From: Octopus sinensis
Lineage: Eukaryota
Assembly: GCF_006345805.1 (NCBI RefSeq)
Contig: NC_043005.1
Location: 55,552,001-55,616,000, forward strand
DNA: 64,000 nt
Direction: 5' to 3'
Shown: in pieces, positions 30,329-52,301 of the stretch
How positions within the stretch are numbered: position 1 is the stretch's first letter
Layout: each line of letters begins with the position of its first letter
Notes under the pieces: generated by a model
What the model saw: only the letters and a program-made list of their open reading frames with translations
Database searches by the model: none
Told to the model about the DNA's origin: nothing
Program-made: the position numbers and the translations under genes

Positions 30329-31266
30329 ACGTCTCTAATTATTCCAGTCACTTTTCTTCCTACTTTCACTATCTTAACTGTACTCAGTCATCCTTAACCA
30401 AAAACTAAGTTTAACGAAGGCTTTTCTTTTTTTTTTTACATATCATAGGTTGTGTTTGTTTTTTTTCTTCTATGAATTCATCAATTAAATCAATTTTTAT
30501 TTATTCTATTCTATTTTATTTTATTTATTTTCGTGTGCGCAGACTAATCAGAACTTTTTATGTATTCTAAATAAAGTATGCATGAAGACATGAAGGACGC
30601 AAATGAAAGAGAATCAAAAATGAGTAACCAGTTACTAAGATTAAGGCACTGGACTACTGACCACAAGGTCATAAATTAAGATCTTATTCACAGCCATTGT
30701 GTTCTGCACCTTGAGCAAGGCACTCAACGTAATTGGCTCTGGTTTGTCTACTGATGAGAAAACAAAGCAAAATTTAAGGAAAATAAAAAAGAAAAATCAA
30801 AACTGGTTTCATTTTGATTCCTAATTTACTGTTGAGTAGTTAATGGCAGATAGGCAAGGGAGTGTGGGGGACGGTGTATGCTCCCCGGACTTAAAAAGAT
30901 AAAAAATTTTAAAAAAACTGTGAGGATGATGCTTTGGATAATGTAATCCAAGACACACTGTGCTTTGAAAACAAGCAAAGATGATCACAGTTAAGAATTT
31001 CCTTTGATTGTACGTTTTTGTGATCAGATCTGACCTGAAGCAAAAGAACAATATCAACAACAACAACAGCAGCAGCAGCAGCAACAGCAACAACAACAAC
31101 AACAAGAAGAATCACACTGCATGACACCTCAGACCAAGTGTGTTCTGCTATAGTCTGAAGTCAACCATAACCTTGTGAGTGTAATTTAGTCGGCTAAAAC
31201 TGTAGAGAAGCCTGTTATACATACATACATACATACATACATACATACATACATACATACATACAT

Positions 31267-31817
31267 GGTGGCTGCCGCCTTGTTATCGAGTATGGCCATT
31301 GCACGAAGCTTAATCAATGTTGTTATCGTGCAATGCCTGTGCAAGAAGATTTTTCTTAAAGTGAGGAAAGGCTGTACACTGAGTCAATCCCACTCACTAA
31401 GCAACAGCAGCCATAATCCGGAAAGAAGAACAAGTCAACATCATCGGTAACCACTGAGCCGCAGGTTTTATGTCAGAGTTATCCCAGTTACCTGAGTTAC
31501 CTTCTCTTAGAAGGATGCCCTAACAAAGGCTAGGAGTCCTACACTCCCAATGGTTTAACCGCACGATCGGGTATTCAGTCCGATTATTTCTATGTCCCCG
31601 CGCATGATACATCCTTAAGACATTTATTGGATGGCCGTTGACTCTCAAGAGTTCCTCCGCCCTTTGACGGGTTTTGTTTTTCATCCCGCAGGGTGTCCAA
31701 TAAATACCCTCCTCACCAAGCAAGCTTGGTGGGGTTGCCAGTTTAGTTGCCGACGACCCGACCATGCAACAGGTTTTACTGGGTTACATGTTACCAGTAG
31801 CACTCGAAAGTACCTGA
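31267..31817 (-). mobile_element. Non-autonomous structured retroelement (~550 nt) with (ATGT)n tail
   Basis: CpG-containing, non-coding, flanked on both sides by (CATA)n; RTE-5'UTR-like motif GGGCATCCTTCTAAGAGAAGGTAACTC; many hairpins. Confidence 0.65.
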
Positions 31818-31867
31818 CATACATACATACATACATACATACATACATACAATCATACATACATGCA

Positions 31868-31980
31868 TGAGAAATCTGCAGTTACTCTATTCAGATTACA
31901 AGTTCAGGTTTATACCTGTAATTATTGGGGCCTTGGAATATGTAACACTCCGTCTTAGGCTTCTCAAAACCAGAAAGGAA
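31868..31980 (+). mobile_element. RLE-type non-LTR element C-terminal fragment
   Basis: RNLQLLYSDYKFRFIPVIIGALEYVT..LGFSKPER; same family as 58170-58672. Confidence 0.75.
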
Positions 31981-31982
31981 AT

Positions 31983-33236
31983 ATCTTCTACTACTAAACC
32001 AGGCCTTCTAGCTTCTATTATTCTGTCAGTCTGAATGTTAAAGTCCCACAACATCTCATATTTCTTACTTTCTAGTCCTTTACTAGGTTTGTGTTCATAC
32101 CATTTATCAGTATGTTCAAATCCCAGTGAATTACTCTCCCTAGGTTGTCATGTCTTTTCTATGCCAGCATGCTACATTCACTTACTATATGAGTGACACT
32201 TTCCACTTTTGATTTGCATAGCCTACATTGGGAATCTACTTGGATTTTGTCTATTTTGTCTTCTATCCAATTAGGCCTTAATGCTTGATCTTGTGCTGCT
32301 ACTAACAAACTTTCTGTTTCCCTTTTCATCCTTACTTTCTGCAACCATAACCATATCTCACTACTTCTATTTGCTTCAACTATCTTTGGGAATCTACCAT
32401 ACAAAACCTTCTCCTGCCAGTCAGATAATTTCTGTTCTTTTTCTGGTTTTTTAACTTTATTTGGTATTTTGGTTTCCCTATGTCTTGCTGTGATTCTAGA
32501 AGCTTTTAATAAACTTTCTTCACTATTACCTACATAGGAGTCTATATCTACTCTAGCTATCTCCACGCAGTCTTCTACTGATATTAGCCTTCCTCTGCCT
32601 TCCTTTCTAGGTCAGTATAATCTTGCTACTCCTGCCCTTGGGTGGAGTCCTCCATTCATATTGAATTCCTTCCTAGTTCTTCTTACAAAATCTACTGCCC
32701 AAATATTTACAGCCTTCACTAGATTCAGATCATTTAGCTTTGACTTCATTAGCTTCCTCACCGTTCTAATGTAATCCTTCTCAATTTTCGTTTTCATTTC
32801 TATAGTTAGTACTCTGTCAGATTCTAATACTCCTAGATACTTACAACTCTCTCTTCCTTTCAATGATTTTAATGTCTGGACATCTGGTAATTGGATGCCT
32901 TCACTGCCAACTACCTGTCTCCTTCTCATTACTAATATTGTACATTTATTTATGCTATATTCCATGCCTAAATCTTTGCTAAAAGTTTTATATTCTGTAT
33001 TAAGGAATCTATCTCCTTTTCATTCTTACTAAAAACATCTACACCTCAACCAAGTAGAGCAAATGGTTAATTTTTCCCTTACTATTTCTGAACTTGCTTT
33101 CCTGCTTTTGCTTTCCTTGATACTAAACTGAAAGGGATCAAACATAAGGCAAATATTAAAGAGGATAAAGAGTCCCCTTGGAAAATTCCTCTCTTGATAT
33201 TAACTTTCCCTAAGACTGTGTCACCTGAGTAGAGGC
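31983..33236 (-). mobile_element. Decayed R4/Dong-like non-LTR retrotransposon (RT, CCHC zinc knuckle, start of RLE)
   Basis: RGIFQGDSLS, KINHLLYL, KYLGVLE, ETESLLVAAQDQALR, CRLCKSKVESVTHIVSEC, RHDNLGRVIHW, LWDFNIQTDRIIEARRP; frameshifts and deletions. Confidence 0.9.
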
Positions 33237-51176: not shown

Positions 51177-52301
51177 TGTTTCTTTATTAGCCACACAGGG
51201 CTGCACACAGATAGAACAAATTACAAGGTAGAGCTTTTCTTTTGGAGGTAAAAAAAATAAAAATAAAATTAAAATAAAAAAAAGGGGGGGTCGATCAAAA
51301 GGGATCGTAAAAGGAGAGAAAGAGGACAAAAAAAAGGGTGGGTTAAAAAAAAAAGGGGGAGAGGAAAAAAATTGATCAATAGGGATCGTTATCACAGAAA
51401 TGTCAATATGAAGTGTAAAGGGGAAGTCACATGTTATATTTCTTTTTTTTTTTTTTTTTTTCCAAATAAGCAACTCTCTGTATTAATTTTTACGGTTCAT
51501 AGAATCATAGTCAAGGTGGCTTCGTCATTCATACGTGCCATCCTTGCTACATTCACCCATCTTTTTTTAAAACATTCACTAGACAAAACTTGCCTCTCTA
51601 CTCTCACTTTTTTCTTCAAGTGATACTTGAAGAAGTTGATGAGAGATTGACCAGAGAGGAAAGTGTTTGTCTCTAATCCTTTCAGACGCGTCCACCAGAT
51701 ACATTCTTTCGCCATAGCCACAAGTATGATAAAAATAGCTCTTCCTTCCCGTTTGAAGGAAGGAGGCGTGACGATATTAACGATAGACTCGGCTGATAAA
51801 CCGACATGTCCCACACGTGACAGCAGTCGTTCGACATAAGCCCACAGGTGGGAAATTGCTGGACACTGCACGATTGCGGGCAGAGCGACGAAACCGTGTT
51901 TCTCGAGCCATGCCTATAGAGCTTATCCCGAACGGGTAGCGCTTCTCGGTAGCACCGCCAGGCCAGGGATCTCTGGAAGTTGTCCATAGGTCCCGGGCCG
52001 AAAGTCGTTTGAAACAGGCGGGTCAGGTATTCCTCGTCGACGCCCAGGTTTGCCCCGAGCTCGTCGTCGTACCTCCCCTCCACTAATCCCCTATAGAATG
52101 CTTTGGTTGTGTTGAAGTCACTCAAGGTCGATACCGGGACGGCAGAGTTGCTTGAGAGCAACGCGACACTCGCGGTGCCATTCGCCCTTCTTCGGCCTCT
52201 TTTTGATCCACGACTGTAGTTCGGTCATGGAGACGAGTTGCGGGAATGCGTGCCTCACAAACGGCGACCACACCTGTTCACCGTCGTCTACATAGAGCCG
52301 G
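51177..52301 (-). mobile_element. Young 5'-truncated Tx1/L1-clade LINE (ORF2 C-terminus with zf-RVT-like domain, 3' UTR)
   Basis: TKAFYRGL..FQRSLAWRCYREALPVRDKL..VQCPAISHLW..AKECIWWTR..CFKKRW; stop at 51497; AATAAA at 51188-51183; GC/CpG-rich; two frame disruptions. Confidence 0.85.

Follow-up and report, generated by a model that had tools for sequence, protein, structure and literature searches.

Class 1a exonuclease-resistant RNAs (xrRNAs) lie in the 3′ untranslated regions (UTRs) of viral genomes and are represented in Rfam by RF01415 (Flavivirus_SLIV) and RF03547 (Flavi_xrRNA), which comprise mosquito-borne and dual-host insect flaviviruses. One study reports the class solely for mosquito-borne viruses and related insect viruses (PMC10770923). 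The described features are an unpaired C in the junction between helices P2 and P3 (J2/3), a GU before P1 that pairs with the P3-P1 junction, a U-A-U triple, a pseudoknot of 5-6 nt and a long-range A-U pair; class 1b is described as reaching the same shape from other sequence (PMC8917146). In a 2021 review, viruses were the only source of characterised xrRNAs, and finding one in a cellular RNA was set out as a goal still to be reached (PMC8374639). Ribozymes at the 5′ ends of retroelements without long terminal repeats (non-LTR elements) have been proposed to free the element RNA from a host transcript and to shield its uncapped end (PMC5786205, PMC8501958, PMC12222951).

Here we describe a class 1a-like fold in a stretch of 64,000 nucleotides of the Octopus sinensis genome (NC_043005.1, positions 55,552,001 to 55,616,000), referred to below as the window. 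The fold lies at 31818-31763 on the minus strand, as do all element features given below, inside a non-coding, non-autonomous retroelement of about 552 nt (31267..31821), whose full-length copies are 88-96% identical (family A). The initial annotation of this locus had proposed a three-way junction with a pseudoknot at the 5′ end of a cellular retroelement, and its bases and pairings are present as described. The fold is real and conserved, a variant of a known RNA type in an unexpected host. A literature search, with most subscription papers, Repbase and supplements outside its scope, found no description of such a fold in a retroelement.

The fold and its likeness to class 1a xrRNAs

The fold opens with a 5-nt single-stranded leader upstream of P1 (31817..31821; 5′ G at 31818, U at 31817), whose bases 2, G3 and U4 are the 5′ partners of the junction pairs and of a predicted U.A-U triple. 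P1 has five pairs (5′ strand 31812..31816, 3′ strand 31770..31774) and is followed by the P2 hairpin with a UUCG loop (31801..31811), which here misses the first C of most copies, and by a single unpaired C between P2 and P3 (31800). P3 and its loop L3 span 31777..31799; the six pairs of P3 join 31799-31794 with 31782-31777, and the second of them, A-U, is the acceptor of the predicted triple. The two-base junction J3/1 is located at 31775..31776. The L3 strand of the pseudoknot (31784..31790) is complementary to the downstream strand (31763..31769), and in the window copy they form six Watson-Crick pairs and one G-U pair.

Covariation was read from an anchored table of 11 retroelement lineages, for which the anchor G was picked between offsets 9 and 10, a choice that is partly circular. 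P1 is invariant across lineages, with 5/5 pairs in 18/18 rows. The J2/3 C is likewise invariant in 18 rows and occurs in 11/11 lineages, as do U4 and the A-U at the second P3 pair. P2 was found in nine versions (39/44 pairs Watson-Crick), P3 in five (32/33) and the L3 pseudoknot in six (30/33); whole-strand shuffles scored as high in 1, 22 and 9 out of 100,000, respectively, counts that are not probabilities, the lineages being related. The loop strands of the pseudoknot (CAUG, AAUG, ACUG, ACAG and others) each come with a matching downstream strand, giving four to seven pairs. On a plain MAFFT alignment, in which differing loop lengths put the register out of step, pairing in the pseudoknot columns came to only 57.8%.

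The most specific covariation was seen for base 2 and the second junction base, which in 18 rows are U-A in eight, A-U in five, G-U in two, G-C in one and unpaired in two. Slid controls gave no signal like it. Per family, this pair is present in 36/40 copies of family A, 24/28 of family B, 11/13 of family E and 4/4 of family G. The G3-C pair was found in 17/18 rows. Family F, whose alignment follows the inner register, accounts for one of the two base-2 misses. Judged from these sequences, the base 2-junction pair is part of a small pseudoknot that would thread the 5′ end through the ring. The contact between U4 and the A-U pair is predicted, its bases being invariant. The base after P1, a candidate for the U of the long-range reverse Watson-Crick A-U pair that would close the ring, is U in nine and C in two of the 11 lineages, and C also in the flavivirus locus L141. 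Minimum-energy folding was uninformative, since neither the window element (z -0.50 against shuffles) nor a true flavivirus xrRNA used as control (z -0.77) stood out. Overall, we are highly confident of the fold as drawn.

The retroelement fold and the class 1a xrRNAs have in common the three-way junction, the 5-bp P1, the single J2/3 C, a two-base J3/1 that starts with C, the GU before P1 and the bases of the U.A-U triple. The register of the L3 pseudoknot is the same in the retroelement folds and in L141, and about 15 bases are identical at equivalent places, P1 included. Tandem copies occur in flaviviruses and in family E alike. The last P1 pair and the first P3 pair are C-G in class 1a, whereas they are U-A in the retroelement fold, with the exception of a metagenome locus (L303) that keeps the P3 C-G. 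These replacements had been noticed in the window copy by the initial annotation, together with the retained A-U pair of P3, and this pair is kept in 11/11 lineages. The likeness to class 1a proved closer than first seen. The location differs as well: class 1a xrRNAs lie in viral 3′ UTRs, whereas the retroelement fold lies at the 5′ end of cellular long interspersed nuclear elements (LINEs) or inside an LTR-type element.

A scan of a viral collection returned three flavivirus 3′ stretches. We then scored 81 pattern-matched viral loci with a model (R1) whose training set consisted of 18 retroelement stretches, without any viral sequence. The top rank was taken by the flavivirus xrRNA in L141 with 29.7 bits, the next locus reaching 19.0. 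With filters off, all five xrRNA-like places in the three flavivirus loci were scored (29.7, 28.4, 19.8, 17.6 and 10.1 bits), and two places in L141 correspond to RF01415/RF03547 in Rfam. The locus L303, which was held out of the training, has a flavivirus-type first P3 pair and scored 34.9 bits with R1; its best Rfam match was RF01415 (22.3 bits, E 0.043). At the level of sequence, the first four class 1a features (J2/3 C, GU-junction pairing, triple bases and pseudoknot) are present, and by every such feature the fold appears to be built like a class 1a xrRNA. We classify it as xrRNA-like and not as a member of RF01415/RF03547. A common origin of the viral and retroelement folds seems likelier than convergence, because about 15 bases including P1 are identical, whereas class 1b achieves this shape with other sequence.

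Carrier families and the 5′ boundary of the elements

When the first 117 nt of the family A element were used as query against its own genome (2.7 Gb), 1,227 candidates were obtained, from which 40 were scored. All 30 loci opened from this 5′ search begin at the same place, and the only upstream sequence they have in common is simple repeats. Among 30 loci found independently via the 3′ end, several of which are near-duplicates, 20 extend as far as the element's first 14 nt; the other 10 stop short at varying positions. In 47 distinct copies, the intact features were the 5′ G in 46, full P1 in 46, a 4-bp P2 followed by one C in 43, a 6-bp P3 in 41, the junction C in 44 and the 4-bp pseudoknot core in 40, with all six in 30.

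The mismatch of J3/1, reported at first as AA where class 1a has C, therefore holds for the window copy and not for its family, in which C comes first in 44/47 copies. Likewise, the suggestion that the 5′ G belongs to the flanking microsatellite fails, as G is found in 49/50 starts of family A and 28/30 of family B, many of them outside microsatellites. The window copy itself has an extra unpaired G between P2 and P3, through loss of a P2 base, and lacks the small pseudoknot of bases 2-3 with J3/1, its G3 facing A. It is a decayed copy, which with two key bases gone is probably no longer resistant or functional, a point that the initial annotation had not noted. Public contigs of four runs over this locus, which show cover and carry neither RNA starts nor strand, have C at 31776 at nearly full depth. 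The element is bordered by (TATG)n on both sides: an (ATGT)n tail with target microsatellite at its 3′ end (31217..31266) and a (TATG)n tract (31822..31868), which is the insertion target and is not common to the other copies.

A longer variant of the element was observed in L009, L082 and L094, with roughly 100 additional bases around position 503, not far from the 3′ end; loose ends of public contigs occur at window 31313-31315. Separately, a weak second P1-like strand pair (CUCAGGU ... ACCUG) without inner helices lies at window 31450-31498 on the minus strand, and also in two metagenome RTE 5′ UTRs (L329:653-702 and L330:2033-2082; 10-12 bits). It could represent a reduced form related to the fold.

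Over its first ~190 nt, the window element is 89% identical to the 5′ UTR of family B and 81-84% to that of family C. The element has no long open reading frame (ORF) and no tRNA head. From these sequences it is regarded as a non-coding derivative of RTE-type LINEs, an origin that the initial annotation had not given. No autonomous partner was identified for its 3′ end (best local scores 28-36, null maximum 33).

We searched the genome for further carriers with an IUPAC pattern, which gave 4,149 matches compared to two for the reversed control; a pattern for longer variants gave 200 compared to one. Thirty loci opened from the IUPAC pattern contained the fold in 13 cases and an unrelated repeat in 17. 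About half of the IUPAC matches come from this other abundant repeat (17 loci among L074-L100), matched internally, with P1-like and P3-like ends and no P2 pairing, and it was dropped as a coincidence. In 24.8 Mb of random sequence with matching composition, a structure-only descriptor gave 35 matches.

The fold opens autonomous LINEs with endonuclease and reverse transcriptase (RT) frames, namely families B, C, D and G and the distant family F. Directly after it come a retroelement UTR and the endonuclease-RT ORF. In family B, the copy L108 has a single frame of 1,123 codons with PF03372 and PF00078 and a tandem-repeat tail. The RTE clade name of the carriers is based on this build (one ORF, APE-type endonuclease and RT, microsatellite tail), and the tree mentioned below had no named reference. 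Exact 5′ motifs occur 79 times in the genome for family B and 27 times for family F. The proteins of the carrier families are 23-85% identical to a reference, family F being distant with 23% in the endonuclease. Two to four repeats of the pentamer GUCAG stand at the 5′ starts of the elements in L359 (910-930), L116, L122 and family F, and in family F these repeats shift the folding register.

In family E, which has 195 candidates in the genome, one to three folds lie about 130-280 nt apart inside an element of LTR type, an internal position that had likewise not been foreseen. The layout is a terminal repeat of about 160 nt, a primer-binding-like site, the folds, a polypurine tract and the second repeat. 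A miniature element of this type is found at L264:1298-2004 (G000:C1:99752500-99761500), and others in L101, L135, L138, L265, L277, L278 and L279. In L101, L265 and L278 a region with a zinc-knuckle ORF follows a shortened second repeat, with PF00098 in L101.

Outside the genome, sampling consisted of 80 metagenome loci. The family B protein had 1,564 homologues at E<=1e-100 among 7,999 scored, and 25 of these homologues were aligned to arrive at the 80 loci, 48 of which were judged to hold the ORF start and upstream DNA. Four of these RTE loci carry the fold 500-1,050 nt upstream of the ORF (L325, L337, L359 and L303), the first three of them being part of the model training. In a quick protein tree of 49 rows the carriers are scattered and the fold needs five changes, at least three of them forced by strong branches; this tree omits L268 and L291, has long branches for L262, L263 and L359, and counts among its 'no fold' rows contigs possibly without a 5′ end. 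The scatter suggests exchange or repeated loss of a module. Other metagenome RTEs (L327, L347-L349 and L344) have G-rich structured 5′ leaders that by eye look like hepatitis delta virus (HDV) ribozymes; neither Rfam nor a descriptor confirmed this. Among 20 metagenome RTE loci compared with Rfam, no family reached the gathering score, and at E<=0.05 eight loci had only microsatellite matches.

The initial annotation had suggested testing whether 5′ ends pile up 1-5 nt upstream of P1. In no copy does shared sequence reach further than about 5-7 nt upstream of this helix, and the DNA insertion boundaries of three families lie mostly 4-5 nt before P1 (range 0-7). Among 50 starts of family A, the four positions preceding U4 keep their base in 46, 44, 48 and 49, and the microsatellite phase breaks at the fifth, which places the start of this family 5 nt before P1. 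In 30 starts of family B, conservation is 28, 25, 26 (purine) and 19, with background at the fifth base, and fades more than 5 nt before P1. Family F has a different leader and non-microsatellite flanks, and its fold begins at the outer of two GUCAG repeats. Here, 14 independent flanks inspected by eye gave nine starts 4-5 nt before P1, five further inside and none further out. The target duplications of a few copies end 5 nt (L435), 7 nt (L437), 2-4 nt (L440) and 3-5 nt (L423) before P1. For comparison, Xrn1 is described as halting 5-6 nt upstream of the P1 base in mosquito-borne flavivirus xrRNAs (PMC5760640). That reverse transcription stalls at the fold was excluded, as the copies hold the entire fold.

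Proposed role of the fold and alternative explanations

We lean towards a model in which a class 1a-like mechanical block to 5′-3′ exonucleases defines where the retroelement RNA begins and protects this 5′ end. The element would be transcribed inside a longer host transcript, or its cap would be lost, after which Xrn1 or Xrn2 would degrade from upstream and halt 5-6 nt before P1. The trimmed, stable RNA with a 5′ monophosphate would be the template copied back into the genome, and it is proposed that full-length copies start at the boundary because this RNA is the template. The fold would in this way serve these families as HDV-like and twister ribozymes serve other RTEs, and the tandem internal folds of family E would yield stable 3′ fragments as in flavivirus 3′ UTRs. 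Transcription from host promoters and release by 5′ ribozymes are described for other RTE-clade elements (PMC8501958, PMC5786205), and exonuclease resistance has been proposed for the R2 5′ module (PMC12222951). Taken separately, resistance of intact copies to Xrn1 seems quite likely, whereas definition of the 5′ end by trimming is only somewhat favoured. The interpretation given in the initial annotation is supported overall: two of the outcomes that it had named as refuting, copies running well past the boundary and unconserved pairings, did not occur, the pairings being kept through compensatory changes; the Xrn1 block and the making of the end of an uncapped RNA are its predicted parts.

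Several observations weigh against this model. The search with xrRNA models that the initial annotation had suggested was negative: no retroelement copy reaches an Rfam xrRNA cut-off, L303 being far under 54.5 bits; the window element and an intact family B copy had no xrRNA match at E<=10; and RF03547 over the whole genome found none among 94 candidates scored. Two of the three flavivirus loci escaped R1 under default filters. The lineages are related and seven of them have one pseudoknot version, so that the shuffle counts make them look more independent than they are. P1 and the triple bases, which are constant among retroelements, give no covariation evidence. L303 lacks both 5′-to-junction pairs, L337 has one broken pseudoknot pair, and the leader of families A, B and D is also able to base-pair with the downstream strand, in competition with the pseudoknot. 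As to the boundary, the family A start, and with it the exact first base of the window element, is blurred by the TATG target, two family F copies (L262 and L433) join inside the first repeat, and the family E fold is not at a 5′ end. Finally, an internal promoter or a ribozyme would also give a sharp 5′ boundary.

The alternative that survives best, although unlikely, is a real xrRNA that makes no 5′ end: an internal promoter would start about 5 nt before P1, the RNA would be capped, and the fold would rescue it after decapping. This explains the sharp boundary equally well and fits the internal folds of family E, and many non-LTR elements are described as having internal promoters (PMC8501958). 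It requires, however, that the start site happens to fall at the distance where Xrn1 would halt, and this in three families whose leaders differ. Moreover, the leader differs among families while its pairing partner changes in step, which points to a signal in RNA and not in DNA.

We consider a further reading quite improbable, in which the fold would be, or would contain the core of, an undescribed type of self-cleaving ribozyme. It would cleave some 5 nt upstream of P1, in the manner of the HDV-like and twister ribozymes of other RTEs, and would owe its xrRNA likeness to scaffold reuse or convergence. The tandem copies in the miniature LTR element resemble hammerhead-bearing retrozymes. Ribozymes have been described as 5′ modules in the RTE clade as well as in other clades of LINEs (PMC5786205, PMC8501958). 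However, no ribozyme family, twister included, matched the window element or intact copies in Rfam at E<=10, scans of the window region and intact copies giving only microsatellite-driven microRNA matches or noise. The strand order, read from sequence, differs from that of the nested HDV double pseudoknot, which has P1.1, a P2 closed downstream and a catalytic C; an HDV descriptor, which had no positive control, gave no match in fold carriers or in 48 other loci. In addition, the class 1a contacts account for all conserved bases, whereas the bases near the would-be cut vary among families.

Slightly less probable still is that the fold is kept as an element for binding or translation, bound by the RTE protein in second-strand synthesis or used for cap-independent initiation, with exonuclease resistance gone. 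R2 5′ modules have been proposed to have several simultaneous roles (PMC12222951), and two core pairs that are G-C in the viral fold are A-U in the retroelements, which would lower stability. On the other hand, the same fold occurs in an LTR-type element with another replication path and in a non-coding derivative, and the conserved contacts are precisely the ring-closing ones. Chance likeness, or a functionless relic of an endogenised flavivirus fragment, is already largely refuted and very improbable: folding energies are no better than shuffles and flaviviral inserts with putative xrRNAs are described in mosquito assemblies (PMC8374639), but four structural elements show compensatory change across families with proteins as diverged as given above, the fold leads into a retroelement UTR and ORF and not into viral sequence, and a tight pattern in prokaryote and phage collections gave 5 and 2 matches that on inspection lacked P2 and P3 pairing (a separate search of a phage collection gave no match).

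Extending the proposed exonuclease block further is possible, although we hold the extended claim short of probable. A functional class 1a xrRNA may be an exchangeable module of animal retrotransposons, with RTE LINEs using host Xrn1/Xrn2 as maker of their 5′ ends, a third route beside internal promoters and ribozymes, and with the LTR-type element making fragments like subgenomic flavivirus RNAs. This module would have one origin with the flavivirus element and would have moved between retroelements and viruses in either direction. The fold is in any case a multi-family candidate for a cellular xrRNA, with compensatory evidence for xrRNA-specific contacts, and if the model is true it would be a cellular use of a device so far described in viruses. 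If resistant, it would give a promoter-less retrotransposon a new way to gain a defined, stable 5′ end, would bear on the origin of the flavivirus element, would likely apply to a LINE reported as transcribed in octopus brain, and would offer natural sequence variants of a fold already used for stabilising engineered RNAs.

Neighbouring elements and comparison with known systems

Upstream of the 552-nt element, the broken 3′ part of an RT-bearing non-LTR element lies at window 31870-33200 on the minus strand, with a C-terminal zinc-binding motif and a weak PF13966 match. It ends in the same (TATG)n tract that received the 552-nt element, and we take it to be R4/Dong-like. As a parent of the 552-nt element it was rejected in view of its upstream position and of its belonging to an old, separate family (26,060 candidates, best other copies <=78% identical); no sequence common to both was found within the window. 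Further away, an open frame of 180 codons (51682-52224, minus strand) looks like the C-terminal part of an L1/Tx1-type element, judged by eye from its motif.

Among known elements, RTE-2_OV is described as a LINE transcribed in octopus brain (PMC9115989). The family B copy L108 encodes a product of 1,109 amino acids from the first Met and has a 5′ UTR of about 600 nt, which are the lengths given for RTE-2_OV (PMC9115989). Family B, compared by lengths alone, is thus likely RTE-2_OV or its ortholog. The words 'ribozyme' and 'secondary structure' have no occurrence in the main text of that paper (PMC9115989). The 552-nt element resembles the bipartite non-autonomous RTE derivatives (Kojima 2018, PMC5786205) in being non-coding, in having the 5′ end of an RTE LINE and a microsatellite tail and in lacking a tRNA head. 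Its 5′ part comes from an RTE LINE (81-89% over ~190 nt), but in contrast to these derivatives a 3′ partner was not found.

A compact structured RNA at the exact 5′ end, as found here, is also present in R2, RTE, Ingi, R4 and LOA elements, which carry HDV-like ribozymes there, and in Perere-3 (RTE clade), which has twister variants. The retroelement fold differs from these ribozymes in its topology. Moreover, ribozymes cleave themselves and leave a 5′ hydroxyl, whereas the end proposed here would come from a stopped host exonuclease and would carry a 5′ monophosphate.
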